Source of the DNA: Candidatus Nomurabacteria bacterium | GTDB taxonomy: Bacteria; Patescibacteriota; Dojkabacteria; SC72; JAHDCA01 | DNA length: 64,000 nt | NCBI GenBank assembly: GCA_020632395.1 | Contig: JACKFQ010000001.1 | Span: forward strand, 136,762-200,761 | Direction of reading: 5' to 3' | Shown: positions 7,921 to 60,259 of the stretch, piece after piece | Layout: every line of letters starts with the position of its first letter | Position numbering within the stretch: position 1 is the first letter of the stretch | Position numbers and translations under genes: made by a program | Notes under the pieces: model-generated | What the model saw: the letters and a program-made list of their open reading frames with translations, nothing else | What the model was told of the DNA's origin: nothing | Databases searched by the model: none

Positions 7921-8571
7921 CTATAATTGGAGTTTTTTGATCATTAGATAACCGATAAACAGAAATGTTCCAATTGATAATATGATTATTAACAGCTGAA
8001 AGGCACTTACTTCCGGGCGTTCGTATGTATTCTTTTCTTCATCGAGAACTTCAGACAGTCTGATAGGCTCTTCATCTGATGTGGTCGCATTATCGGTGGT
8101 GGTATTTTCCTCGTTGGATGTGTCTAGCTTGGTCGAATCAGGCAGGTTCTCAGAATCATTGGGTTGCTCGGTATCGTTAGGGTCTTGCACCTCTGTTGGC
8201 TCGTCTAGTGGAAGAGCGATACCTGCATTCGCAAAAAGTAACCTCTCAATATCACTTGCTCCTTGATAACAAGTGGAATCAACTACAAGGGTTGGTACTA
8301 TCTGATCATTGTCATTACAAGTCTCAAGATCATTAAGTAGTAATTGTTTGTTTTCGTCTGGAGTAACCTCGATTACTGTGACGTCTAGGATTTCCAATAC
8401 CCCAGAGGGTTCAGCCTCTTCTAATAACTTTTGACAATGCGGACAGCTGTCTAGGACATAAAGGGTATACTTTGAATTCAGATTGTCTTGCGCATATATT
8501 CTTGCGTTGGTCAGGAAAAGAATTCCGTAGAGTGATATTATTATTAATAATGTTTTGATGACTGACTTCAT
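7921..8571 (-). CDS. Membrane-anchored thioredoxin/glutaredoxin-like protein (CPHC motif) with an acidic C-terminal tail and a C-terminal TM segment
   Basis: 216 aa with an N-terminal signal/TM segment, a DSCPHCQKL CxxC motif, an Asp/Glu/Thr-rich tail and a hydrophobic C-terminal segment. Confidence 0.5.
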   Translation of the reverse strand: MKSVIKTLLIIISLYGILFLTNARIYAQDNLNSKYTLYVLDSCPHCQKLLEEAEPSGVLEILDVTVIEVTPDENKQLLLNDLETCNDNDQIVPTLVVDSTCYQGASDIERLLFANAGIALPLDEPTEVQDPNDTEQPNDSENLPDSTKLDTSNEENTTTDNATTSDEEPIRLSEVLDEEKNTYERPEVSAFQLLIIILSIGTFLFIGYLMIKKLQL

Positions 8572-8609
8572 ATATTTTTCAGCTTCTCTAAATATAATTA
8601 TCTTATTAT

Positions 8610-9257
8610 ATGATAAATACAGATATACAACTAGAAAAGAAGCTTTGGGATGAGGGGTTTAAATATATTGTCGGCTTAGATGAGGCTGGACGCGGACCTT
8701 GGGCTGGTCCTGTCGTAGCAGGTGCAGTATTAGTACTTCAGGATCACATACCAGATATTGCTGTAACTGATAGTAAGAAGATGACAGAAGCAAGAAGGCT
8801 CATCGCCTATGAAAAGATCATTAACTCGTCCTATCATAAATGGGGTGTGGGTGTTGTAGAGCCGTCTGTTATTGATACTCTAGGAATAAATGCAGCAATT
8901 CGTATAGCAATGGAGTCAGCAGTAAAGGGTATAGAAACTGAGATCAATAAGCTTGTAGAATATCTACTGATAGATGGTCAGAATGTACAGAGTATTCCTT
9001 TGTATAAGCAATACAAAGTCAATAAAGGTGATGGTTTGCATTATTCCATCGCTGCTGCATCAATCATTGCAAAAGTCACTCGAGATCGAATAATGGAAGA
9101 GTATACGCAGAAATACCCAGAATTCAGATTTGATAAACATAAAGGTTATGGCACAAAACAGCATCAAGAGGAGCTAAAACAACATGGGGTCACAGCAATA
9201 CATAGAAAGACATATGCACCGATTTCAGATATCCTCAAGCATCAGGACTCACAATAA
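8610..9257 (+). CDS. rnhB: Ribonuclease HII
   Basis: 215 aa. The VGLDEAGRGPWAGPVV catalytic-site motif is typical of RNase HII. Confidence 0.85.
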   Translation: MINTDIQLEKKLWDEGFKYIVGLDEAGRGPWAGPVVAGAVLVLQDHIPDIAVTDSKKMTEARRLIAYEKIINSSYHKWGVGVVEPSVIDTLGINAAIRIAMESAVKGIETEINKLVEYLLIDGQNVQSIPLYKQYKVNKGDGLHYSIAAASIIAKVTRDRIMEEYTQKYPEFRFDKHKGYGTKQHQEELKQHGVTAIHRKTYAPISDILKHQDSQ

Positions 9258-47413: not shown

Positions 47414-47872
47414 ATGATCACAAATACTATCTCGATAATCTACGCATCATCTTCTGGGAACACTCTTTTCGTTTCTGAATTTGTTGCAGGTAAACTAGAT
47501 GAGCAGGGTTTTACAACAGACCTGATAAATGCAGATATTTTCGACCCTATGGATCTAAACAAGATGGATAATGTTCTATTTGCAACATCTACATGGGAAC
47601 ACGGTGAGATACATCCTTTCTTCCACAATACGATTAAAAGATTGGATCAAATTGATCTACAAGGTCGAAAAGTAGCCTTCATAGGTACTGGAGATAGACG
47701 ATATGAACCGATCCTTTTTTGCGGTGGTATGGAGATCTTAAGAAAAGAAGTTCTATCACGCGGAGCAGATGAGATATTATCCCCACTACGCCTTGATGGT
47801 GATCCAAGACCAAATGCAGATAGTACAGTAAGTAAATGGGTAGATAAACTTTTGACAGTACTGGAGGCATAA
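47414..47872 (+). CDS. Flavodoxin
   Basis: IIYASSSGNT, FMN-binding S/TxTGxT-like loop, 152 aa. Its stop (TAA) overlaps the ATG of the next gene (TAATG). Confidence 0.7.
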   Translation: MITNTISIIYASSSGNTLFVSEFVAGKLDEQGFTTDLINADIFDPMDLNKMDNVLFATSTWEHGEIHPFFHNTIKRLDQIDLQGRKVAFIGTGDRRYEPILFCGGMEILRKEVLSRGADEILSPLRLDGDPRPNADSTVSKWVDKLLTVLEA

Positions 47873-49602
47873 TGAGGTATACGTTACGAATAACAGGTGA
47901 ATCTGGGCAAGGGATAAATTCTATTGGAGAGATACTGACTAAGGCACTAAAGAACTCAGGTTACTATACTTTTGGTTATCGTGAATATCCCTCATTGATC
48001 AAAGGAGGGATTGCAATGTATCAACTCGAAATATCTGATGAGCCTGTGAATTCAACTACAACATATGCAGATCTGATGTTCTCCCTCAGTAGGTATTCTA
48101 TGCACCATTATGCAAGGACACTAAAACCCGGATCGCATATATTCCATACATTTTCAAGAAATATGTGGCCTAAGGAAGTCAGCGCGGATATTAAAAGTAT
48201 AGAGCCTAAGGTTTATGAATTGAATGCTGAAGAACAAACGATCCTTGCAGGAGGTACAAAGTTGATGGTAAATGTCTACATCATGGGATACATATGGGAT
48301 CTTTTAGGACAAGAATTGGAGAAACTTACCGAGCAAGTAATGATTCATTATGCAAAAAAACCTGAATTGATGGAGGCAAATATTTCTGTTCTAAACTCGG
48401 GATATTCTACAGAAAAAGAAACAGGAAGATATCAATTGACACCTTCCTCCGAAAGTACTGATAAATACGCTGTCATGACAGGTAATCAATCTGTCGCTTT
48501 AGGTGCATATTCAGCAGGGTGTAGAGCATTTTATGCTTATCCTATGACACCAGCCTCATCAGTTCTTACAACATTAGCAGAAATGTCACATGAGACAGGT
48601 ATGCTGATAAAACAAGCAGAGGATGAGATCACAGCTGCACAAATGATGTTGGGTTCGATGTATGTCGGTACGAGAGCAATGACAGGAACTAGTGGTGGAG
48701 GATTCGATTTGATGACCGAGTCTCTCTCATTAGCGGGAATGGCGGAGATACCTGCTGTATTTCTGCTCGCACAACGCCCTGGACCTGCTACAGGACTTCC
48801 TACATGGACATCGGCTTCAGACCTCGATCTAGCGATTTATTCTGGGCATGGAGAATTTCCCAGAGTCGTTTTAACACTCTCGGACACGAAAGATTCTTTT
48901 CATCTGACAAGAAAGGCTTTTGATATAGCTGAAAAGTACCAGTTGCCGGTCATTATTCTTACTGACAAACACCTTGCCGAATCTCTTTATCTAACTGATG
49001 AACTTCATGCCGATAGTGAAATTGAAAGAGGTTTAGAAGTAGACGTTCCAGAGAATTCTTACCGGTATGTCTTTACCAAAGACGGTATATCACCTAGATG
49101 GTTACCAGGTACATCCGAGCAGGTGTATGTCACAAATAGTGATGAACACACAATGGATGGTAGCAGTACTGAGGATATGGAAGTAGCTAAGGCTATGTAT
49201 GATAAACGACTTCTAAAGATCGAGGCAGTATTGGATGCGTTACCAGAACCGATATTCACAGGAGATGGATCATCTAAGTATCTGGTCATCAGTTATGGAA
49301 GTCCCGTGACTGTTGTTAGAGAAGTTATTGATAAGATCAATAAAAAAAATGGAAATAGAGACATTGCATTACTTCAATATGAATATCTTTACCCATTGCG
49401 TACAGAAAAACTTCACGAGATTTGTAAAAGTGGTGTGAAGGTGATCTTTGTTGAGCAGAATGCTACCGGACAGTTTGAGAGATTGGTACATACGAAATTA
49501 AATACAGAACCAAATTTCGAGATACTTGATAGTTTCCGTAAATATGATGGTAAACCAATTTTTTTCGATGAGATGTATAACTTTTTGAGTAAATACCGAT
49601 GA
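47872..49602 (+). CDS. 2-oxoacid:ferredoxin (flavodoxin) oxidoreductase, alpha subunit (fused gamma+alpha domains)
   Basis: 576 aa. The N-terminal part is a POR gamma-like domain, followed by the alpha core. It overlaps the beta-subunit gene by 4 nt. Confidence 0.8.
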   Translation: MRYTLRITGESGQGINSIGEILTKALKNSGYYTFGYREYPSLIKGGIAMYQLEISDEPVNSTTTYADLMFSLSRYSMHHYARTLKPGSHIFHTFSRNMWPKEVSADIKSIEPKVYELNAEEQTILAGGTKLMVNVYIMGYIWDLLGQELEKLTEQVMIHYAKKPELMEANISVLNSGYSTEKETGRYQLTPSSESTDKYAVMTGNQSVALGAYSAGCRAFYAYPMTPASSVLTTLAEMSHETGMLIKQAEDEITAAQMMLGSMYVGTRAMTGTSGGGFDLMTESLSLAGMAEIPAVFLLAQRPGPATGLPTWTSASDLDLAIYSGHGEFPRVVLTLSDTKDSFHLTRKAFDIAEKYQLPVIILTDKHLAESLYLTDELHADSEIERGLEVDVPENSYRYVFTKDGISPRWLPGTSEQVYVTNSDEHTMDGSSTEDMEVAKAMYDKRLLKIEAVLDALPEPIFTGDGSSKYLVISYGSPVTVVREVIDKINKKNGNRDIALLQYEYLYPLRTEKLHEICKSGVKVIFVEQNATGQFERLVHTKLNTEPNFEILDSFRKYDGKPIFFDEMYNFLSKYR

Positions 49603-50474
49603 GTGACTGTTCGCTTTTACATACTGGATATAACTCGGATAATTTATACACATGGTGTACTAATTGTGGTAATTACGGGATACATGGGTCATTAAAAACT
49701 GCACTTGCAGAACAGGATCTTTTGCCACACGAAGTCGTATTATGTTTTGATATCGGTTGTCATGGGAACGGCGCTGATAAGATCCATGCTAATACAGTAC
49801 ATGGTTTACATGGAAGGGTAATACCCTTCGCTGTAGGTATACAACTGGCAAACAGAAAGCTAAAGGTAGTTGCGTCTGGTGGTGATGGAGCTACACTAGG
49901 AGAGGGTATAAATCATTTTATCCATGCGATCAGGTCAGACTATGATATTACATTTCTCCTTCATAATAATTCAAATTACGGACTCACTACAGGACAGGCA
50001 TCACCAACTACAACAGAAGGGGTCCCGATGAACTCATCTCCTGATGGTGTTTCTGCCACTCCGATCCATGTCTTAGATCTCGTCTTTAGCTTGAAACCCA
50101 CCTTTGTAGCCAGAACATTTTCAGGTGATATCAAACAGATGACCAGAGTGATCAAAGCTGGTATGAAACACAAGGGTTTTAGTGTTATTGAAATATTGCA
50201 ACACTGCCCGACATACAATAAGGCAACTCCACACGAATGGTACAGAGAGAGAGTTTATGATGTGAACAAGATAATGAATTATGATACGAGTGACATCGGA
50301 AATGCACAAAGAGTTTCAAAAGATATTACTGACAAGATAGCAACCGGTGTCATCTATCAGAGAGAATCAATGGATTTCTATTCAAAACAGTTGAACAGGA
50401 AAGATCGTACAACTGAACTGGTAGAGGAGGTTAATAGCTACCCTGTAGATGATCTATATCGAAGATTTATCTAA
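49599..50474 (+). CDS. 2-oxoacid:ferredoxin oxidoreductase, beta subunit (TPP-binding)
   Basis: Cys pair WCTNCGNYG and a GDGA TPP-binding motif. 291 aa. Confidence 0.8.
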   Translation: MSDCSLLHTGYNSDNLYTWCTNCGNYGIHGSLKTALAEQDLLPHEVVLCFDIGCHGNGADKIHANTVHGLHGRVIPFAVGIQLANRKLKVVASGGDGATLGEGINHFIHAIRSDYDITFLLHNNSNYGLTTGQASPTTTEGVPMNSSPDGVSATPIHVLDLVFSLKPTFVARTFSGDIKQMTRVIKAGMKHKGFSVIEILQHCPTYNKATPHEWYRERVYDVNKIMNYDTSDIGNAQRVSKDITDKIATGVIYQRESMDFYSKQLNRKDRTTELVEEVNSYPVDDLYRRFI

Positions 50475-52555
50475 TTCACATAAATCTTCACATCTACGGC
50501 AACACATCTATTTATCGTCACCATGGCAGGATTGATATCGATGGATTTTATCTCCGGATACCTTAGGATCATTCTTTGTAATCCCTCAAGTGTTTTGACG
50601 ATCTTGTCGGTCGGGAGTTTCTCTAAACCTCTGGCACCATGTAACACCCTGGACACCCTTGTTTCATCGATCATCTCCTCAAGCTCTTCGTGACCGGCAT
50701 ATACTAATCTTGTAGATGTGTCATTGTAAACTTCTGTATAGATCCCTCCTTTACCAAAAAGGATGATGTGACCGAAATTCTCATCATAATTGATACCCAG
50801 TATGACCTCTTCTTTTGCAAAAACCTGCTCTTGTATCAAGACATTTGGTTTTTTGTTTCCTGAAACCTGTTTGATCGTTTCTACAAGACTACGATAGTTT
50901 CTCTCAAGATCTTTTTCCTTGAAAATATTGAGATAGATCATACTCTTTTCGGTCTTATGTGGTATATCCTCTGCTGTTGCCTTAATAACTACCGGGTATT
51001 TACCTTTCTTGAAGTATTCAAGCAAACCGTCAAATGAATCTGAAACTACTTCTAATGGCGTGTCGATCCCTGCTTCCTCGATGAGAGATTTGGTGAGATC
51101 TCCGGGAAGGCCTAACTGTCCGTCTTTATGTGCTCTGACTACCCGACCCTTGAATTTACCCTCATTTGATCTGGGCTGTCGGACAGCTTTTTTTGTCCTG
51201 ATACGAGTTGAGAAATCAACAAGGTTCTTTAGAGCGCCAATTGCCTCTTCATCATATTGAAAAGCTGGAATATGATTTTCCCATAATCGTTGTAATCCAG
51301 GTTCAACATACTTTTCTCCAATAAAGATAGGGATCAAAGGAAAATCGCTCTCTTTATAGAAATCGATTATGACTTTTGCTGTTTCTTCGATCTGAGTGAC
51401 TAACTGTGGAGTAAGTATGACTAATATCGAGTCAACTCCAGGATCTTTAGATATGATCTTGATAGCTTTATCATATCTATCCGCTAAAGCATCACCCAGT
51501 AGGTCTACCGGATTGTTTGTACTTGCTGTATTAGGTAGAAATTCCTCCAAAAATTTTTTACTTTCTTCGGATAGAGTCGCGAGTTTCAAACCAGCAGAAG
51601 AGAGTATATCCGTGATAATTATTCCGGGTCCACCAGCATTGGTGATTACAGCAACGCGGTCACCCTGTGGATACGGACACCACGAGAACATCATCAGATT
51701 ACTATACATCTTTTCTATACTATCCACCTGGATGATACCTGCTTGTCTTAATGCCGTTTTGACAGCTCTGGCACTTCCGGCTAATGAACCAGTATGTGAT
51801 TGAACCGCCCTTTTCCCTGCCTCGCTTATTCCGGAATTTAGAACGATCGCTGGTTTGTTGCGATTCTTGGTGGCGAGTTCAGCCAATTTCCTTCCATCAT
51901 CAAATTCCTCAATATATGCACCGATTACTTTGATCTCATCGTCCTTGTACCATTCTTCGAAAAGGTCGATCTCATTGATATTTGCTTTGTTTCCGAGAGA
52001 AACAAAGTAGTTAAAACCCAGCATTTTGTTCTCCGCCAGATCAAGCATGGCAGTATTGAATGCTCCGGATTGTGAAAGGAAACCGATGTTACCTTTGTCA
52101 GGATGCTGAGCTGCAAAGGATGCATTTAAGTCATTTGCTGTACATATTATTCCCAGACAGTTTGGTCCTATCAGTCGCATATCGTTCTTCTCAACTATTT
52201 CAATCAACTGATCCTCCAATTCTGCACCAGATGGACCAACTTCCTTGAAACCAGCTGTGATTATAACTAGATTCTTGACTCCAGCCCTTACACAATCTTT
52301 AACTGAAGCAATAACAAACTCAGTTGGGATAACAATAACGACAAGATCAGGTGGATGAGGTATGCTTTTGATGTCAGAATAGGCTTGGTATCCATAAAGC
52401 TCTGAATATTTGGGATTGACAGGATATACAAGACCTTGGTAGCCATTCTTGAGGATATTATTGAAAATGACTGATCCTAGCTTTTTTGGATCAGATGAAA
52501 CTCCAACAACAGCTACTGATCTAGGATAGAAGATATCTTTAATATTTGTGGGCAT
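50471..52555 (-). CDS. Acetyl-CoA synthetase (ADP-forming), fused alpha-beta (CoA-binding + succinyl-CoA-synthetase-like + ATP-grasp)
   Basis: 694 aa. N-terminal CoA-binding region (SVAVVGVS...GYQGLVYPVNPK), a middle ligase-CoA domain and a C-terminal ATP-grasp. It is convergent with the OFOR beta gene. Confidence 0.8.
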   Translation of the reverse strand: MPTNIKDIFYPRSVAVVGVSSDPKKLGSVIFNNILKNGYQGLVYPVNPKYSELYGYQAYSDIKSIPHPPDLVVIVIPTEFVIASVKDCVRAGVKNLVIITAGFKEVGPSGAELEDQLIEIVEKNDMRLIGPNCLGIICTANDLNASFAAQHPDKGNIGFLSQSGAFNTAMLDLAENKMLGFNYFVSLGNKANINEIDLFEEWYKDDEIKVIGAYIEEFDDGRKLAELATKNRNKPAIVLNSGISEAGKRAVQSHTGSLAGSARAVKTALRQAGIIQVDSIEKMYSNLMMFSWCPYPQGDRVAVITNAGGPGIIITDILSSAGLKLATLSEESKKFLEEFLPNTASTNNPVDLLGDALADRYDKAIKIISKDPGVDSILVILTPQLVTQIEETAKVIIDFYKESDFPLIPIFIGEKYVEPGLQRLWENHIPAFQYDEEAIGALKNLVDFSTRIRTKKAVRQPRSNEGKFKGRVVRAHKDGQLGLPGDLTKSLIEEAGIDTPLEVVSDSFDGLLEYFKKGKYPVVIKATAEDIPHKTEKSMIYLNIFKEKDLERNYRSLVETIKQVSGNKKPNVLIQEQVFAKEEVILGINYDENFGHIILFGKGGIYTEVYNDTSTRLVYAGHEELEEMIDETRVSRVLHGARGLEKLPTDKIVKTLEGLQRMILRYPEIKSIDINPAMVTINRCVAVDVKIYVN

Positions 52556-52651: not shown

Positions 52652-53767
52652 ATGTTTCATTTGTTTATTTCACCTATATATCAAAACTTTCTTAAACCAT
52701 TTCTATTTAAGAAAGATCCTGAGGAGGTTCATGATAATTTCATAAGGATCGGTGCATTTCTGTCATCACATAGGATCACGAGAGCGTTTACAGCATTGTT
52801 ATTCAACTATCATCATCATATTTTAGAGAGTAATGTGGATGGCCTAAAATATCTGAACCCAATAGGACTATCCGCAGGGTTCGATAAAGATGCTAATTTG
52901 CATAACATCATGCCAAAAGTAGGGTTTGGTTTCGAAGAGGTTGGATCGGTAACACTACGACCATATGAAGGAAATCCAAAACCACGTCTGTATAGATTAT
53001 TCAATAGTAAGGGATTAGTTGTTTATTATGGTTTGAAGAATATTGGAGTCGACAAGATCGTAGAGAGAGTGAAAGTGAGATTAGATCCAAACTTCATCTT
53101 AGGGATCTCGGTAGCCAAGACAAATTCGAAGGATTGCAGCACAGACGTTGGCGGTATAGATGATTATGTCGGCTCTTTGAAGATCCTTGAGAAGGCAAAT
53201 GTCGGAGACTACTACACAATTAACATATCATGTCCAAATACCTACGGTGGAGAGCCATTTACAACACCAGAACGACTCGATCCGCTCCTAGCTACTATCG
53301 ATGAGCTCGATATACAAAAACCTGTATATATAAAAATGCCTATAAACCACAAATGGGAGGAGTTTGATAAGTTGCTTCAAGTAGTAGTTAAACATCGTAT
53401 CAATGGCGTGGTTATTGGTAATCTGAATAAAGACAGGAGTTCTGAGCTGATAAAAGACGAGATACCTGAACATATAAAGGGAGGGATCAGTGGAGTACCT
53501 ACGCGTCAGCTTTCAACAGAACTTATACGTAAAACATATATGAATTATGGGAATGATCTTACAATAATCGGAGTAGGGGGAATATTCACAGCAGAAGATG
53601 CCTATGAAAAGATACTCGCAGGAGCTTCTTTGTTACAGATGATCACCGGTATGATCTTTGGAGGTCCGCAGACTATCGGAGAGATCAATCGTGGTCTAGT
53701 ATCCTTCCTCAAGCGCGACGGGTATGCTACCCTATCAGAAGCAATAGGTAAGGGAGCTATCAAATGA
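52652..53767 (+). CDS. pyrD: Dihydroorotate dehydrogenase (class 2-like, with an N-terminal extension)
   Basis: GFDKDAN, NISCPNT and IIGVGGI motifs. 371 aa. Confidence 0.8.
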   Translation: MFHLFISPIYQNFLKPFLFKKDPEEVHDNFIRIGAFLSSHRITRAFTALLFNYHHHILESNVDGLKYLNPIGLSAGFDKDANLHNIMPKVGFGFEEVGSVTLRPYEGNPKPRLYRLFNSKGLVVYYGLKNIGVDKIVERVKVRLDPNFILGISVAKTNSKDCSTDVGGIDDYVGSLKILEKANVGDYYTINISCPNTYGGEPFTTPERLDPLLATIDELDIQKPVYIKMPINHKWEEFDKLLQVVVKHRINGVVIGNLNKDRSSELIKDEIPEHIKGGISGVPTRQLSTELIRKTYMNYGNDLTIIGVGGIFTAEDAYEKILAGASLLQMITGMIFGGPQTIGEINRGLVSFLKRDGYATLSEAIGKGAIK

Positions 53768-54597
53768 TCAAAAAGATACAAAAGATAGATGGCGTTGTTG
53801 AGGACTTCAACATCTCAAAACTTAAAAGATCTATAAGAAAGGCTGGTGCACCAGAAGAACTTGTTGACGGGATTGCTCGTGAGATTTCCAAAGATAAGAA
53901 GATCCACTCCACAAAAGATATTCATTCGAAGGTCTATCAGGCACTTGTCAAAAGTAAACCCTCAGCAGCAGCACGTTACAGCCTCAAAAAGGCGCTACAC
54001 AGTCTAGGTCCTACAGGTTACCCATTTGAGAAATACATAGCCTCTATCTATCACTACATGGGATATCAAACGAAAGTAAATATCACGCTTCAAGGCTCAT
54101 GTGTTACTCACGAGATGGATGTTATTGCACGCACTGCGTCAGATCTCTTATATGTAGAATGTAAATATCATCAAAGTCAATCAGCAAAAAGTAACGTAAA
54201 AATCCCTTTATATGTACAGGCAAGGGCTGAAGATCTCATAGAATATCAGAAGAATGTCGAGCCAGATGGCACCAAGTTCCATTTCTTCATTGCTACAAAT
54301 ACAAAATTTACTACCGATGCTGTTCAATACAGTCGATGTAAGGGTCTAAAACTGTTAAGTTGGGAGCAACCTGAGGAGGATCCACTTCCTCAAGTTATTG
54401 ATAGATATGGTCTACATCCAGTTTCTAGTCTCACCTGCCTTACTAGAGCTCAATCAGTTCGGCTGATCGAGAATGGAGTGGTGATGGTGAGAAATGTTCC
54501 AGAAATGTATCGCGAGATGTCCAAAGCGGGTCTACATCCTGACGTTATAAGGAATGCGATCAAGGAATCTGAAGATATCCTAGATATGATGTCTTAG
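53764..54597 (+). CDS. ATP-cone domain fused to an Mrr-like (PD-(D/E)xK) restriction-endonuclease domain
   Basis: N-terminal MIKKIQKIDGVVEDFNISKLKRSIRKAG...AAARY is an ATP-cone. The C-terminal FEKYIASIYHYMGYQ...HEMDVIA...LYVECKYHQ is an Mrr_cat-like D...ExK. ATGA overlap with pyrD. Confidence 0.6.
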   Translation: MIKKIQKIDGVVEDFNISKLKRSIRKAGAPEELVDGIAREISKDKKIHSTKDIHSKVYQALVKSKPSAAARYSLKKALHSLGPTGYPFEKYIASIYHYMGYQTKVNITLQGSCVTHEMDVIARTASDLLYVECKYHQSQSAKSNVKIPLYVQARAEDLIEYQKNVEPDGTKFHFFIATNTKFTTDAVQYSRCKGLKLLSWEQPEEDPLPQVIDRYGLHPVSSLTCLTRAQSVRLIENGVVMVRNVPEMYREMSKAGLHPDVIRNAIKESEDILDMMS

Positions 54598-54624: not shown

Positions 54625-57600
54625 ATGTTCTCAAAAAGAAGCAAGAATAAGTTCAAGGATATTAGATCTGATCATTCTAATTCAGCTAGTCGATCACCAA
54701 TCGCATCATTGGATCTCTCAGGTGGCAGTCTTGGACGCAGAAAGATCATGCGAAGTCTACCAAAAGCAATTTTTGGTTTAGTTCTTCTCTTAGGCGGTGT
54801 GATCATCATCAATGTATTATTGAATTACGACTTTGTGGGTTTAGGTGATTCAAAGGCATCAGGAGGAGCAGTTTCCGGAGATCTGGTTAAATGGCATACC
54901 GTCACTATTGATTTTCAAGGGCCTAATCTGTCTGAAGTCCAGAGTGATCCAAACCCATTCCTTGATTTTCGACTAAATGTACAATTCAAAGCCCCTTCAG
55001 GTAAAACTTACAATATACCTGGATTTTTTGCAGGTGATGGAAATGGAGGAGGAAGCGGAAAGGTCTGGAGGGCCAGATTTACTCCGGGCGAATCAGGGAA
55101 TTGGGAGTATACAGCATCATTTCGATCGGGTCCTCAAGTAGCAATTGATCTCTCTCCTACTGCAGGAGTATCTGACAGTTTTGATGGACAGACAGGTTCC
55201 TTTAATATCGCTCCCCTTGATACAAATGCCAAAGGATTCAGATCGATGGGCAGATTGGAATATGTCGGTTTATATTATTTGAAATTTGCAGATGGTCCAT
55301 ATTGGCTAAAAGGAGGTATTGATAGTCCAGAGAATTTCCTTGGGTATAAGGGATTTGACAATACAGTCGATCAAGGAGGTATCATTCCTAATTTCGTCCA
55401 TGAGTACTCCACCCATGTAGCTGATTTTCAACAAGGAGACCCTTTATTTACGAGTGCAGATACAGGATATGATTCAAAAGGTATCATTGGAGCCCTGAAC
55501 TATCTATCTTCGAAACATGTGAACTCTATATATTTCCTGCCTATGAACCTAGGAGGAGATGGACAAGAAACTTACCCCTTTGTTTCGCCCAATGATAAGA
55601 CTCATTACGATATTAGTAAACTAGATCAGTGGTACACAGTATTCGAACATGCTACAAGCAAGGAGATAGCACTACATTTTGTGTTAAATGAGCAAGAGGA
55701 GGGTAATAGGAATTGGTTAGACGGAGGAACTTTAGGGATTGAAAGAAAGCTGTACTATCGAGAGCTGATCGCTCGATTTGGACATAACTTAGCACTCAAG
55801 TGGAATATTTCCGAAGAAAATCGATTTGACACTAATACAACGATACAATTCGCTCAATATATAAATGATCTAGACGAGTATGATCATCCCATAGCTGCAC
55901 ATACTCACCCAAACGATTTTACGCAATACGAACAGCTAAAGGGGAACCCTAACTTCACTGCAACATCTATACAATACGATGTGAACCAAGCATCAAGTCA
56001 TGTTGAGTCATGGCGACAGAAATCCCTCGAATCAGGTCAAGTTTGGGTCATTGATATGGATGAAAATAATCCCGCAGGTGTTGGACTAACAAATCAGAAT
56101 GCATCTGAGCTGAGGAAGAGAGCTTTGTATGACATATATTTTTCAGGAGGAAATCTTGAGTGGTATTTTGGATATCATGACCTTCCTTTAGGCGGTGACA
56201 TGCGTACTGAAGATTTTCGTACTAGAGAAGAAATGTATAATTATATGTGGTATGCACGCAAGTTTATGCAGGATAATCTCCCTTTTTGGGAGATGGGACC
56301 TATCGATGGATTGGTTGATGGTGAGAATAATAGTGTCGGTAGTGCTCAAGTTCTAGCAAAACCAGGTTCGATCTATGCTGTGTATTTTCCTAGTAGTAAC
56401 GATGCAGATGATAGAACAAATGGTTTTCTTGATCTCTCTAATGCATCAGGCAACTTTACGTTGAAATGGTATAACCCTCGTACCGGAAACTTCGAAGGTA
56501 CTGAGTCAAGTATGACAGGAGGTTCTAAACAAACTATCCCCCCAGCCCCTTCAGATTTTGGTAATGACTGGGTTCTTTTGGTCACAGATGGTAGTTATAC
56601 ACCTGGACAGGGTATTGATCCTGTACCGACACCAGAACCAGGAGGTGATCCTGCATATATTGCAAATAACGGTCTTATTGTGATCGAGGTAGAGAAGTTG
56701 AACTATACTGACGGTTGGAATGAAGAAACTCTCATACCTGGATATACTGGTCAGGGTTATTTGCATTGGGTTGGTGGGGATTTCTTCAGTACACCCGGTA
56801 ATGGGATAATAGAGATCCCTATATGGATAGAAGAAGCTGGCACATATAATCTCAGACTAAGGAATTTTCATGATCACCCGGATGCTTCTGAGGAAAATGA
56901 TGTGTGGATAAAGATAGATGAAGGTAGATGGGTGAAAACATTTTCATCTGCAAAAGATGAGTGGACCTGGAATACTAGTTATGAATTCAGTGAGGATAAT
57001 AAAGTTCCTGCTTCCGATCAGTTGAGTGCAGGTAGACATGTAGTGTATTTCTCCGGTAGGGCAAATGGATTTAGGATAGATCGAATGCATATGTATCTTG
57101 ATTCAGTTCCTGATGCACTAAATCTCTCACTACCCGAATCCACGTTTGCAACTCCTGGTGGAGGAACAGGTCCTGCTGAGTGTAATATCACTGCACAACT
57201 TGAATGTAATTATGAATTAGATGATCCACCAGCTTTAAATGTCGCATGGAAGATCACCAATGATAATATTGAGTTCGGATCTGAACAAAACTCAGGTAAG
57301 ATCGTTGTAAGAATCAATAACATTGAGGATGGTTGGTTTACAGAGGGAAGTGATTATTGGTGGGCATCAAACTATCAAGAGTTTGCAAATACAGGAAAAG
57401 ACTTTAGAGACGCTGATTGGAACTATAATATACTCCCAGACACGATATATAGGGCATGGGTTTCAGTATATGCTAAAGACGACCCTGATAACATTGTTTG
57501 TGTGACAGATGAACTCCCTATAGCCTGTGAATCCCGGGACGATCCTGTTGACCCACCGGTAGATGATCCTCCTGATGATCCTATCGAACCACCGGATGTT

Positions 57601-57903
57601 CCAATCGACCCTCCAGTTGTCGTAGATGACCCTACAGGGAGTCCTGCTGATGATCCTACTGGTGACCCGAGTGTGACAGATTACCCATATCAAGATACAA
57701 CAAATAATAATACTTACTATGTAGATCCTACAACATACCAATATTATCAAACCTCAAATCTGCCAACTACTGCATTATCATCAGCGCAGAAACGGTTTGT
57801 GATCGGTTCAATAATGTTGATCTTGGGTAGTACGCTTTTCTTCTTCCCAAAGATCCGAAGTGTCATCTTCAAAAAGAACACAACCATGCGAGAAAGTGTC
57901 TAA
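54625..57903 (+). CDS. Large cell-surface protein: signal anchor, DUF5060-like Ig domain, DUF4038 (GH140-like) TIM barrel, malectin/CBM-like domain, Pro/Asp-rich stalk, C-terminal TM anchor
   Basis: 1092 aa. VTIDFQGPNLSEVQSDPNPFLDFRLNVQF...GFFAGDGNGG...WRARFTPGESGNWEY matches DUF5060. A Pro/Asp-rich linker sits near 57540-57660, and the C-terminus reads FVIGSIMLILGSTLFFF. Confidence 0.5.
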   Translation: MFSKRSKNKFKDIRSDHSNSASRSPIASLDLSGGSLGRRKIMRSLPKAIFGLVLLLGGVIIINVLLNYDFVGLGDSKASGGAVSGDLVKWHTVTIDFQGPNLSEVQSDPNPFLDFRLNVQFKAPSGKTYNIPGFFAGDGNGGGSGKVWRARFTPGESGNWEYTASFRSGPQVAIDLSPTAGVSDSFDGQTGSFNIAPLDTNAKGFRSMGRLEYVGLYYLKFADGPYWLKGGIDSPENFLGYKGFDNTVDQGGIIPNFVHEYSTHVADFQQGDPLFTSADTGYDSKGIIGALNYLSSKHVNSIYFLPMNLGGDGQETYPFVSPNDKTHYDISKLDQWYTVFEHATSKEIALHFVLNEQEEGNRNWLDGGTLGIERKLYYRELIARFGHNLALKWNISEENRFDTNTTIQFAQYINDLDEYDHPIAAHTHPNDFTQYEQLKGNPNFTATSIQYDVNQASSHVESWRQKSLESGQVWVIDMDENNPAGVGLTNQNASELRKRALYDIYFSGGNLEWYFGYHDLPLGGDMRTEDFRTREEMYNYMWYARKFMQDNLPFWEMGPIDGLVDGENNSVGSAQVLAKPGSIYAVYFPSSNDADDRTNGFLDLSNASGNFTLKWYNPRTGNFEGTESSMTGGSKQTIPPAPSDFGNDWVLLVTDGSYTPGQGIDPVPTPEPGGDPAYIANNGLIVIEVEKLNYTDGWNEETLIPGYTGQGYLHWVGGDFFSTPGNGIIEIPIWIEEAGTYNLRLRNFHDHPDASEENDVWIKIDEGRWVKTFSSAKDEWTWNTSYEFSEDNKVPASDQLSAGRHVVYFSGRANGFRIDRMHMYLDSVPDALNLSLPESTFATPGGGTGPAECNITAQLECNYELDDPPALNVAWKITNDNIEFGSEQNSGKIVVRINNIEDGWFTEGSDYWWASNYQEFANTGKDFRDADWNYNILPDTIYRAWVSVYAKDDPDNIVCVTDELPIACESRDDPVDPPVDDPPDDPIEPPDVPIDPPVVVDDPTGSPADDPTGDPSVTDYPYQDTTNNNTYYVDPTTYQYYQTSNLPTTALSSAQKRFVIGSIMLILGSTLFFFPKIRSVIFKKNTTMRESV

Positions 57904-57915
57904 GCAACTTAAAGA

Positions 57916-58716
57916 TCAGTTGATGTGATATTTGACGTTCCCTAGCGTTTTTAGTGGAACCCACCAATGTTTTCTTGTCAACCTAAAGTTGTCAAAGAAG
58001 ATTGAGTACTTTCTATCGACAGGTAGCTTTTCGTTCCAATCCAGATGATCTGTGTAATTGTTATCAATTACTTCGACCTTTGAAGTTATGTCGTGATCGA
58101 AAGGTATTGAACCCGAAATAAACTTTGATCTTCTTATAAGCGCTTGTGTATTTGGAAATATCGAGATCTGTCCACGAGGATATCCTGACATATTCCACAA
58201 GTTACTCTTATTACCAACAAATTGTGAGTCAGATACTTCTATTTTGGAATCAGGAACTAAATTATCAATAGCAGAACCTGTATGTCCTGCAGTATTATTT
58301 TCAAAATAGCATTTATCGAATATAACTACTTCTGTGGATTGATTTGAAACTGCTCCGCCACAGAAGACAGATGTATTGTTCGTAAAACGACAATTCTCAA
58401 ATATAACTGAGGATCTACCAGAAATAACAACTGCACCTCCATCAACTATTTCATATACGGTACCTTTCTTATAATGATAAGAAATATCTGTTCGTCTAAG
58501 AAATCTCAAAGACCCAGTATTACCACCAATGAAATGTAAATTTCTTATATGAAAATTCTCGCAGTTATGGATTGAAAGTAAATGAGTTACTTTATTATGA
58601 CCGTTGATGACAAAATTCTGACCATCAAATATTTGGTTATCACGATCTGATATAGAAAATGCATTGTATGAATAAGTATTTGCATGCCAATCAGAGGACA
58701 ATTTCATAGTAGTCAC
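57916..58716 (-). CDS. Right-handed parallel beta-helix repeat protein (pectate-lyase fold)
   Basis: 266 aa with repeating GG(N/A)... and NN(T/S) beta-helix rungs (FIGGNTGS, CGGAVSNQ, NNTAGHTGSAIDN). Confidence 0.45.
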   Translation of the reverse strand: MTTMKLSSDWHANTYSYNAFSISDRDNQIFDGQNFVINGHNKVTHLLSIHNCENFHIRNLHFIGGNTGSLRFLRRTDISYHYKKGTVYEIVDGGAVVISGRSSVIFENCRFTNNTSVFCGGAVSNQSTEVVIFDKCYFENNTAGHTGSAIDNLVPDSKIEVSDSQFVGNKSNLWNMSGYPRGQISIFPNTQALIRRSKFISGSIPFDHDITSKVEVIDNNYTDHLDWNEKLPVDRKYSIFFDNFRLTRKHWWVPLKTLGNVKYHIN

Positions 58717-59387
58717 TTATCAGTCAAATAAAGTAGTGACTTGATCGGAATAGGTATAAAACCGATTGTGATCTTGAATTCTTTAACGATAACCTTGTAG
58801 GCTTCAATATTTATACAGTTCATTAATGCTTGATGATCCAATGTACGTTTTTGTATATCATCTTTATATATTCGACCAAATGAATTATGAGTTAATTGTT
58901 TTACTGCATATAAAGATTCTGCTGATAGGCTATTGAATTTGATACCTAAAAGCTCTGTTTCGATCAACTCTTTTTCGGGAATTGATGCATAAAACTTCGG
59001 GAAGAGCTCTATCCTTAAACGACCTTTATCATATATGAATGGAGTAAATAAAATTTCTAGATCACATGAATCTTGCTTGAAGAAACGAGTATATCTGTTT
59101 GACGAATACCTAATTAAGATATTGGAGAAAGGCATGCTTCTACCTATAAATGTTGATCTGCTATAACCTCTTTCGATCAACTGATCCTCAATCTCGGATC
59201 TATATGCCATATCTGCAATGGTATCGATATCCTTGATCTTTCTATAGTAATTCACATTCTGGGTGTGAGATGTCAATCCAACCGATCCGAGTATGAGTAT
59301 ATTGGGTAAATTGGTTGTGATATTTGAAAAATCCTTAAGCGTTTGTAGCACTAATTCGTTCTGATCTTTGAAATCTTCTATATCCAT
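58713..59387 (-). CDS. Hypothetical protein, possibly nucleotidyltransferase-fold (GS...DID)
   Basis: 224 aa. ILILGSVGL...KDIDTIAD is weakly NTase-like. It overlaps the beta-helix gene by 4 nt and starts ~45 bp from the IS end. Confidence 0.3.
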   Translation of the reverse strand: MDIEDFKDQNELVLQTLKDFSNITTNLPNILILGSVGLTSHTQNVNYYRKIKDIDTIADMAYRSEIEDQLIERGYSRSTFIGRSMPFSNILIRYSSNRYTRFFKQDSCDLEILFTPFIYDKGRLRIELFPKFYASIPEKELIETELLGIKFNSLSAESLYAVKQLTHNSFGRIYKDDIQKRTLDHQALMNCINIEAYKVIVKEFKITIGFIPIPIKSLLYLTDK

Positions 59388-60259
59388 TGATATTTATTAT
59401 ACATCTGCTCCTTCTGTATACACAAATCGGGGTAACAAGACCCCCATTTTTTAGACAGTCCTAAATTTAGTTTTTGGAACTGTTTCCTAAACCCATAAGG
59501 GGAGGTTTTCAGAGAGGAATGTATCCGCTCCCTGTTGTAGTAGTTGATCGTGTGATCTATACCCTCGACAAAGGCTCCACTAGTAGGATACCTTTCAAAC
59601 TCTAACCCCAGATCAGTCTTGAAGTTTCCATAGAAACTTTCCTGATACCCATTCTCCCAAGGTGATGCCTTCTTAGCCATTGACACCTTGATCCCGAGTC
59701 CCTCAACTCGACCCAAATACTCCTGACTACAGTACTCTGCTCCCTGATCCGAATGTACAATATGTGGTACCTGAAACCCTGTGTTAAGAAATGTATCCAG
59801 AAAAGCCCCGATCACCAGATCTTTGGTATGCCTGTTTGATACATTCCAGCCTACAATCTCCCTCGTATACCGATCCATGAAGGTGGCCAGGTAGTAGAAC
59901 TTACTGTTGTATCTCACGTAGGTAAAATCTGATACGTAAGTATGACCCGGCATTACAGGACACCTGTCCTTGGTAAGGTTGGGGTATGGCATCTCTTTAC
60001 GTCTCTCGTCTCTGCGTTTTCTCCATCTGGCTTTACGCTTGTAGGCTTTGAGACCGTACTTCTTCATCACCCGCTGTGCTTTCTTCTTGTTGATCCCAAG
60101 TGCCAGGGCTACCCGTCTGTATCCGTACGCTGGATTGGAGGACATGACATCCACAATCTGCTCTCTCAGGGCTCCATCCTGAACTTCCTTCTTTCTCTTG
60201 TAGTACAGAGATGATCTGGACACACCCAGATCTCTTGCTAACTGGGTCTTACTCTCCAT
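59378..60259 (-). CDS. IS3-family transposase OrfB (DDE/rve integrase core). The ORF reads through the terminal IR into flanking DNA
   Basis: 293 aa with DDE residues (HSDQGAEY...ENGYQESF) and an rve-type core. Confidence 0.75.
   Translation of the reverse strand: MESKTQLARDLGVSRSSLYYKRKKEVQDGALREQIVDVMSSNPAYGYRRVALALGINKKKAQRVMKKYGLKAYKRKARWRKRRDERRKEMPYPNLTKDRCPVMPGHTYVSDFTYVRYNSKFYYLATFMDRYTREIVGWNVSNRHTKDLVIGAFLDTFLNTGFQVPHIVHSDQGAEYCSQEYLGRVEGLGIKVSMAKKASPWENGYQESFYGNFKTDLGLEFERYPTSGAFVEGIDHTINYYNRERIHSSLKTSPYGFRKQFQKLNLGLSKKWGSCYPDLCIQKEQMYNKYQWI

Follow-up and report, generated by a model that had tools for sequence, protein, structure and literature searches.

We analysed a 64,000-nucleotide stretch of DNA from a Candidatus Nomurabacteria bacterium (assembly GCA_020632395.1, contig JACKFQ010000001.1, positions 136,762 to 200,761 of the forward strand; the whole stretch is called the window below, and coordinates refer to it unless a different locus is named), and consider here a plus-strand gene at 53764-54597 whose 277-amino-acid (aa) product joins an ATP-cone, a predicted PD-(D/E)xK nuclease, and an AF1548-like C-terminal domain. 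The open reading frame (ORF) is as described in an earlier reading made from the DNA letters without database searches (the sequence-only reading), which had proposed an ATP-cone fused to an Mrr-like endonuclease. Both of those domains hold up, but a third, at aa ~200-272, had been missed: the protein consists of three domains, not two. An AlphaFold2 model of the protein, built with 56 homologs as input, has a mean pLDDT of 94.6 and a pTM of 0.88, and a protein identical to the 277-aa product is found on 7 metagenomic contigs.

Immediately upstream on the plus strand lies pyrD (52652-53767), encoding a class 2 (quinone-type) dihydroorotate dehydrogenase; its product matches Pfam DHO_dh at E=1.1e-64 and the NCBIfam equivalog NF003652 at 300.9 bits, against a cut-off of 267. 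The junction between the two genes (53750-53767, plus strand) can be read directly from the sequence and contains the overlap that had been noted earlier: in the ATGA at 53764-53767, the pyrD stop codon TGA (53765-53767) overlaps the nuclease ATG (53764-53766), and a Shine-Dalgarno-like (SD-like) AAGGGAG at 53750-53756 lies within the 3' end of pyrD, separated from the nuclease ATG by a 7-nt spacer. Alignment of the N-terminus to homologs backs this start codon. A scan for promoters and terminators was uninformative, with counts no higher than in shuffled sequences and the sole terminator-like hairpin falling within a coding region. The GC content is flat at 0.40-0.41 over the nuclease gene and its flanks, which rules out a recent acquisition or compositional anomaly of the gene here.

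Domain architecture of the predicted nuclease

The Mrr_cat / PD-(D/E)xK core occupies aa 85-199 (54016-54360, plus strand), as supported by Pfam PF04471 (26.8 bits against a gathering score of 21, E=5.9e-6), by alignment to the crystal structure 1Y88 (AF1548 of Archaeoglobus fulgidus), and by the model. Over aa 88-198 the model has an alpha-beta-beta-beta-alpha-beta topology (helix 88-98, strands 102-110, 115-123 and 127-134, helix 146-162, and strand 171-178), so that the fold confirms the D...ExK core picked out by the sequence-only reading. The two motifs on which that reading had settled are correct as well: HEMDVIA contains D119 and LYVECKYHQ contains E132-C-K134 (D119, E132 and K134 are encoded on the plus strand at 54118-54120, 54157-54159 and 54163-54165, respectively). 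The classical PD-(D/E)xK set, E89, D119 and E132-x-K134, is completed by the last residue of the linker and first active-site motif G82-P-T-G-Y-P-F-E89 (54007-54030, plus strand), which takes the form GPxGxPFE in alignments of the family (56 and 150 homologs). Eleven residues (F88, E89, G111, E117, D119, E132, K134, R154, D157, N179 and P219) are invariant both in the 56 homologs and in 150 more diverse representatives, each from a separate 50%-identity cluster, with a mean column identity of 26%. Because the catalytic set is invariant despite this low mean identity, the alignments argue strongly that the predicted nuclease retains catalysis. With profile matches, fold and conserved D/E/K residues all in place, none of the outcomes that the sequence-only reading had named as refuting its domain assignment is observed. 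The Global Ocean Sampling paper (PMC1821046) predicted the equivalents of D119, E132 and K134 to be the catalytic residues of AF1548. Beyond 1Y88, a Foldseek search of the PDB returned MspJI, EndoMS/NucS, McrC, the R2 endonuclease, and Can2/Card1/Cdn1.

Three cysteines and one histidine of the core (C113, H116, C133 and C192) are also invariant in the 56 close homologs; C113, H116 and C192 are conserved in at least 90% of the 150 diverse representatives, and C133 in fewer than 90%. The four residues could have a structural role, bind a metal, or make up a redox-sensitive cluster. The idea of a Cys/His metal site is weakened by the lower conservation of C133 and by the Gln that AF1548 has at the H116 position.

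The C-terminal helical domain (aa ~200-272; 54361-54579, plus strand) is assigned from the 1Y88 alignment, the model, and Foldseek, and is helix-hairpin-helix-like (HhH-like). 1Y88 matches aa 79-272 in a phmmer search (E=7.7e-22) and is the first match to the full model in a Foldseek search of the PDB (E=7e-14); the domain forms five helices in that model. When modelled in isolation (pLDDT 92.3), the domain still finds 1Y88 by Foldseek (TM 0.75), and next resembles the RadA/Rad51 N-terminal domain, BAF, and NusA (TM ~0.6, root-mean-square deviation [rmsd] ~2 Å, E=0.2-1). A C-terminal family profile searched against PDB sequences has 1Y88 as its sole match (E=2.5e-13). For the C-terminus of the query itself, Pfam gave no match even under relaxed settings, and PF22357 (AF1548-like, C-terminal) was not reached at E<=10; across the family, PF22357 matches 91 of the 150 members and HHH_5 matches 2. 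From these models and comparisons, we consider it probable, with modest confidence, that the C-terminal domain is an HhH-like module for non-specific binding of duplex DNA. The crystallised AF1548 chain begins past the GPxGxPFE motif, which includes the active-site residue E89, and residues of the His-tag and TEV site align in its place; the deposited AF1548 gene model may be N-terminally truncated, without part of the active site and possibly without a cone.

The ATP-cone spans aa 4-79 (53773-54000, plus strand) and matches Pfam PF03477 at 34.8 bits, against a curated gathering score of 25.8, over profile positions 2-86 of 88 (E=2.5e-8). In the AlphaFold2 model it consists of a beta-hairpin (strands 4-6 and 12-14) followed by helices 17-26, 31-43, 50-64 and 66-72, with pLDDT >90, and Foldseek superposes it on the ATP-cones of NrdR, NrdB and NrdD with an rmsd of 2.1-2.9 Å over 81 aa, in agreement with the domain call of the sequence-only reading. 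Cone residues K7, K19, Y72 and K75 are conserved in at least 90% of the family. An hhalign comparison with the Escherichia coli NrdA cone (86% probability) pairs family residues K7, E13, K19 and T50, and H54 of the query (Tyr in the family consensus), with NrdA K9, E15, K21, T55 and H59, which are ATP or dATP contacts, but places I8 (Ala in the family consensus) opposite NrdA R10. Searches of PDB sequences were weak, in that single-sequence phmmer with the cone gave no relevant match and the top matches of a family-profile hmmsearch were mostly spurious designed helical-repeat proteins; we therefore base the assignment of the cone on Pfam, hhalign, and the fold. Taken at the level of sequence, nucleotide binding by the predicted cone is plausible.

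Family size and prior knowledge

By a word-indexed search we recovered 1,802 clusters of homologs at 90% identity, almost all of them ~275-290 aa long. An exhaustive phmmer search, in which the nuclease plus C-terminal part was used as the query against 1.84 billion cluster representatives, returned 812 representatives (50% identity) at E<=1e-3, 597 of them at E<=1e-10. Among the best 150 of these 812, which are the diverse representatives used above, Mrr_cat is present in 149 and the ATP-cone in 126, and only 14 are short forms lacking the N-terminal extension; weaker superfamily matches are to UPF0102 (20), Card1_endonuc (13), Hjc (12), and NA-iREase1 (10, weak). Because so many representatives carry the cone and so few are short, the three-domain architecture is the ancestral norm, and the fusion is ancient and stable. 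The family ranges over Bacteroidota, Nitrospirota, Gammaproteobacteria (Legionella and Pseudomonadales metagenome-assembled genomes [MAGs]), Babeliales, and several groups of the candidate phyla radiation (CPR), and its members already carry public names such as 'ATP cone domain-containing protein', 'restriction endonuclease', and 'ATPase'. The arrangement had been put forward as unusual in the sequence-only reading, a description that does not survive these counts and names: the gene belongs, as an ordinary member, to a bacterial family that is widespread and catalogued but functionally uncharacterised.

A literature search found no paper on an ATP-cone/nuclease fusion under either spelling of ATP-cone, and for AF1548 the matches listed (15 of 22), aside from PMC1821046, were accession-number strings in unrelated papers. 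Nor was an ATP-cone protein with a demonstrated regulatory role outside ribonucleotide reductases (RNRs) and NrdR found in the searchable literature. Because it pairs the cone with a fully intact nuclease, the family offers a single-polypeptide test case for nucleotide-gated DNA cleavage and for ATP-cone control of a non-RNR enzyme, and its operon context suggests a physiological role open to testing.

Genomic context of the gene in the window

The sequence-only reading had treated the linkage to pyrD as meaningful. When pyrD was searched by tblastn against 53 homologous loci (denoted by L numbers), the only match, adjacent to the nuclease, was at L001, a Candidatus Saccharibacteria MAG that is the closest genomic relative (nuclease 55% and pyrD 58% identical). 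The syntenic order runs flavodoxin, POR-alpha, POR-beta, ADP-forming acetyl-CoA synthetase (minus strand), a variable slot, and then the nuclease; pyrD fills this slot in the window and in L001, L060 (51% identity) has nothing there, and L062 (44%) has a tRNA U5-methyltransferase. With adjacency at 1 of 53 loci and a slot that varies among syntenic relatives, the pyrD overlap reflects, on this comparative evidence, how genes are packed in the compact genome of one lineage and is not a conserved functional coupling, and pyrD as a functional partner is largely refuted.

The wider context in the window is of a housekeeping kind, comprising MutL (~10 kb away), an ABC transporter, superoxide dismutase, flavodoxin/POR, and the acetyl-CoA synthetase. 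The flavodoxin/POR/acetyl-CoA synthetase block, at 47414-52555, is syntenic with the nuclease in L054, L060 and L062 at 44-57% identity; it represents a fermentative ATP-generating module, and its acetyl-CoA synthetase gene is divergent from the nuclease side. A scan of the flanking genes over about 42-63 kb of the window showed no further pyrimidine-biosynthesis gene, and no DNA methyltransferase occurs among the window neighbours scanned. The genome appears to be of the Saccharibacteria type; that lineage is generally considered nucleotide-auxotrophic, and a stand-alone quinone-type pyrD is odd for it.

Downstream of the nuclease gene, 54625-57903 encodes a 1,092-aa protein with an N-terminal membrane/signal segment and a Pro/Asp-rich stalk. 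It also has DUF5060 and a 'collagen-binding' domain, as is typical of surface proteins related to glycoside hydrolases, and it ends much like a sortase substrate, the C-terminal sorting signal being suggested by an LPTTA motif together with a hydrophobic helix and a basic tail. It is followed by a low-GC patch (58000-60259; 0.33 versus 0.40), which adjoins a minus-strand insertion-sequence-type transposase (rve integrase core plus helix-turn-helix [HTH]; 59381-60259). This transposase, ~5 kb downstream, is the sole mobile-element signature near the nuclease gene.

Neighbours of homologs in other genomes

To describe the surroundings of homologs, ORFs from the 53 genome loci and the window were clustered and the clusters annotated with Pfam; the nuclease ORF was called in 51 loci, which form the denominator of the counts that follow. 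A beta-CASP/RMMBL metallo-hydrolase lies directly downstream of the nuclease, often overlapping it, at 11 of 51 loci, and a pair of thymidine-phosphorylase-like (TP-like) and phosphoribosyl-pyrophosphate-synthetase-like (Prs-like) genes occurs at 6. Tandem universal stress protein (USP) genes are present at 14 of 51 loci, a count inflated by near-identical islands, and P-type ATPases and Hsp20 also recur. The full order nuclease, beta-CASP, TP-like, Prs-like is found in Roseivirga and Cyclobacterium, beside PPK2, PFK, PFOR and PPDK, and Legionella steigerwaltii has the order beta-CASP, TP-like, Prs-like, nuclease. Genes of this conserved operon flank the homolog in L013, L020, L023, L043, L064 and L065, with an unannotated ORF of ~225 aa following in L064 and L065; in Cyclobacterium (L065) a large PFOR gene lies ~2.6 kb, or three small ORFs, upstream of the homolog. 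Homologs from CPR, Nitrospirota and Babeliales sit among housekeeping genes of various kinds.

An adjacent trio in Bradyrhizobium diazoefficiens, bll3115-3117, whose annotations are the same as those of the beta-CASP, TP-like and Prs-like genes, is induced by 0.5% O2 at both the transcript and the protein level (PMC6515984). The beta-CASP, TP-like, Prs-like and USP partners suggest a low-oxygen or energy-stress nucleotide-salvage pathway, and no description of them together with an ATP-cone nuclease was found in the searchable literature. Nucleotide and phosphoryl genes are also seen beside homologs in unrelated lineages: adenylate kinase (L063, 1118-2185), MazG (L066, 5577-5918), inorganic pyrophosphatase (by eye; L050, 7468-7998), and PPK2 (L064, 11352-12083). 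Picked by eye as they were, these neighbours suggest an adenylate/nucleotide theme.

A different setting is found in four Flavobacteriaceae loci of 8-16 kb (L003, L004, L006 and L007, from the genera Arenibacter, Gelatiniphilus, Maribacter and Tenacibaculum), where the homolog, at about 8001-8816, lies in a block with 97-99.8% DNA identity. The block carries tandem USP genes (upstream of the homolog, with a 1-nt gap), an AAA_28 ATPase, and a P-type ATPase, and, as read by eye only, HMA-domain and AraC-type genes as well. Such identity across genera marks the block as what is, by all appearances in the sequence, a recently mobile metal/stress island.

Function and competing explanations

By analogy with characterised ATP-cone proteins, a nuclease gated by adenine-nucleotide levels appears to be the most plausible molecular mechanism. 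Building on this, we tentatively favour, with somewhat less than even confidence, a reading in which the protein would act as an adenine-nucleotide-gated, sequence-nonspecific DNA endonuclease for nucleic-acid turnover or salvage under energy or oxygen limitation. We infer nucleotide binding, the direction of regulation, DNA as the substrate, and the physiological role, and the steps would run as follows: ATP, dATP, or another adenine nucleotide would bind the cone, as in ribonucleotide reductases and NrdR; the bound cone would alter the oligomeric state of the protein, switching the nuclease on or off; DNA cleavage would thereby be tied to the energy or (d)NTP status of the cell; and the C-terminal HhH-like module would hold duplex DNA without sequence specificity. 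Co-transcription with pyrD at this locus would come about only through local gene packing in a compact, Saccharibacteria-type chromosome. Turnover or salvage of nucleic acids under energy stress is probably the role, rather than phage defence. Both the set of neighbours and the microoxia data point towards turnover or salvage; the family is vertically maintained, and the protein is soluble.

Several points weigh against this reading. The position of NrdA R10 is occupied by Ile (I8) in the query and by Ala in the family consensus, so that the ligand of the predicted cone could differ from ATP/dATP, and the similarity of the cone to characterised ATP-cones in the family-profile search of the PDB is weak (E=0.1-0.8). 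The assignment of the C-terminal domain as HhH-like depends on Foldseek matches of E=0.2-1. The beta-CASP/TP-like/Prs-like association belongs mainly to Bacteroidota plus one Legionella locus (the full operon occurs at eight Bacteroidota loci and that of Legionella) and is absent from the CPR and Nitrospirota loci, including the window, and bll3115-3117 was likened to that trio by matching annotations only. The mobile island of marine Flavobacteriaceae also fits an accessory or defence role. Finally, the literature search found no biochemical data on any family member.

The most novel form of this reading, which we think unlikely, would make members of the family the first enzymes regulated by an ATP-cone that do not serve ribonucleotide reduction: energy-charge-gated, sequence-nonspecific DNases whose products feed a salvage operon. 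If true, DNA breakdown would start as ATP falls, for example in hypoxia, starvation, or episymbiont dormancy; the products would go to the conserved operon of beta-CASP hydrolase, AMP/nucleoside phosphorylase, and PRPP synthetase; and the nuclease would help nucleotide-auxotrophic Saccharibacteria to turn DNA into nucleotides.

One rival, in line with the nucleotide-pool-sensing defence switch that the sequence-only reading had raised, is a stand-alone anti-phage nuclease, Type IV-like or abortive-infection, whose cone would sense infection-induced changes in (d)NTPs and unleash nonspecific cleavage. The Mrr-type domain is in keeping with such a role, as are its nearest structural relatives, among them MspJI, McrC, and three defence nucleases gated by ligands (Can2, Card1 and Cdn1), and PADLOC yields domain-level matches to the ZorD nuclease (E=2.4e-6) and to the candidate system PDC-S02 (E=5e-4). 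There is, however, no full-length match in PADLOC-DB v2, and the PADLOC matches to CARF-PDDEXK and Csx1 (E=0.003-0.01) are limited to the nuclease region. We also took a census of the 143 genes within two positions of the homolog at 41 non-redundant loci, which matched 170 Pfam families, of which the 25 commonest were listed: no defence partner recurs among the 143 genes, which give only scattered single matches to generic domains, and no DNA methyltransferase appears among the 25 commonest families. The protein itself has no Mrr_N domain. The carriage of the gene on a 16-kb Flavobacteriaceae island, 97-99.8% identical across genera, might look like the mobility of a defence gene, but that island holds metal-resistance and stress genes rather than defence genes, and in the reduced genomes of Saccharibacteria the gene keeps a conserved syntenic position among housekeeping genes, with native GC content. 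With neither a cognate methyltransferase in these scans nor a PADLOC neighbour that recurs, and with surroundings of a housekeeping kind, the defence role is not supported, and we consider it unlikely. Doubtful to a similar degree is a structure-specific repair or recombination nuclease (NucS/EndoMS-, Hjc- or YraN-like) in which the cone would couple activity to dNTP supply. EndoMS/NucS superposes with an rmsd of 3.2-3.3 Å over ~117 aa, Pfam Hjc and UPF0102 match 12 and 20 of the 150 members, the C-terminal domain resembles the HhH domain at the N-terminus of RadA/Rad51, and in small genomes the gene sits on the chromosome and is passed on vertically; yet the Hjc and NucS similarity is of a generic, superfamily-level kind, weaker than the matches to Mrr_cat and AF1548, and genes for repair or recombination do not recur among the neighbours, the MutL gene of the window being ~10 kb off and unlinked.

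Two further explanations we regard as considerably less probable. The protein would be a non-catalytic, NrdR-like DNA-binding regulator if the nuclease fold and the HhH-like domain did no more than bind DNA and the cone controlled occupancy, for instance at divergent energy-metabolism genes: NrdR provides a precedent for an ATP-cone joined to a DNA-binding domain, the Saccharibacteria gene is divergent to the ADP-forming acetyl-CoA synthetase beside POR, and inactive restriction endonuclease domains exist, with NA-iREase1 weakly matching 10 of the 150 members. Invariance of E89, D119, E132 and K134 together with E117, R154, D157 and N179 would be unexpected for an inactivated fold, and the Pfam scan found neither a Zn-ribbon nor an HTH domain, which makes this account improbable. 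We give the least credence of all, very little indeed, to pyrD and the nuclease as a functional pyrimidine-linked module, the idea raised by the sequence-only reading, in which the nuclease would be co-regulated with pyrimidine biosynthesis. The ATGA overlap and internal SD-like sequence do imply co-transcription here, and the adjacency is repeated in L001 despite its divergence, but the linkage is missing at the remaining 52 of the 53 loci, L060 has nothing in the slot and L062 has the tRNA U5-methyltransferase there, and no other pyr gene is nearby.

Comparison with known systems

The closest known structure is that of AF1548 (1Y88), a structural-genomics protein predicted to be a restriction endonuclease. 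It is homologous to the protein described here in both the nuclease core and the helical domain at the C-terminus and has the same predicted D/E/K residues, but the crystallised chain lacks an ATP-cone and has Gln where the family has His116. With the Type IV enzymes of the Mrr family, the protein shares its catalytic family, with E...D...ExK intact; it differs from them in having no Mrr_N winged-helix reader of modified DNA, in its N-terminal cone and HhH-like C-terminus, and in lacking a defence-island context. Type II restriction-modification systems differ in turn, since no cognate DNA methyltransferase was seen here, either among the window neighbours or in the 25 commonest Pfam families at the 41 loci. 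Can2, Card1 and Cdn1, of type III CRISPR and CBASS-like systems, likewise combine a nucleotide sensor with a PD-(D/E)xK effector, and their nuclease domains are structurally similar to the one described here; their sensor, however, is a CARF domain for cyclic oligoadenylate, whereas here it is an ATP-cone rather than CARF or SAVED, no cyclase or CRISPR locus is associated, and the neighbours are metabolic and stress genes.

On the side of the sensor, the ATP-cones of RNRs (NrdA, NrdD, and Leeuwenhoekiella NrdB) belong to the same domain family and have the same fold, and most of the positions aligned with the NrdA contacts K9, E15, K21, T55 and H59 appear to be retained here; the NrdA R10 position is instead Ile or Ala, and the partner enzyme is a nuclease rather than a reductase. 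NrdR, like the protein described here, fuses an ATP-cone to a nucleic-acid-binding module, but it starts with a Zn-ribbon, carries its cone at the C-terminus, and lacks a catalytic domain, as opposed to an N-terminal cone and an intact nuclease with no Zn-ribbon, and its sequence similarity to the cone described here is weak (E ~0.5). By analogy, NrdR-type oligomerisation under nucleotide control, gating interaction with DNA, would be the best available mechanistic model for this family.

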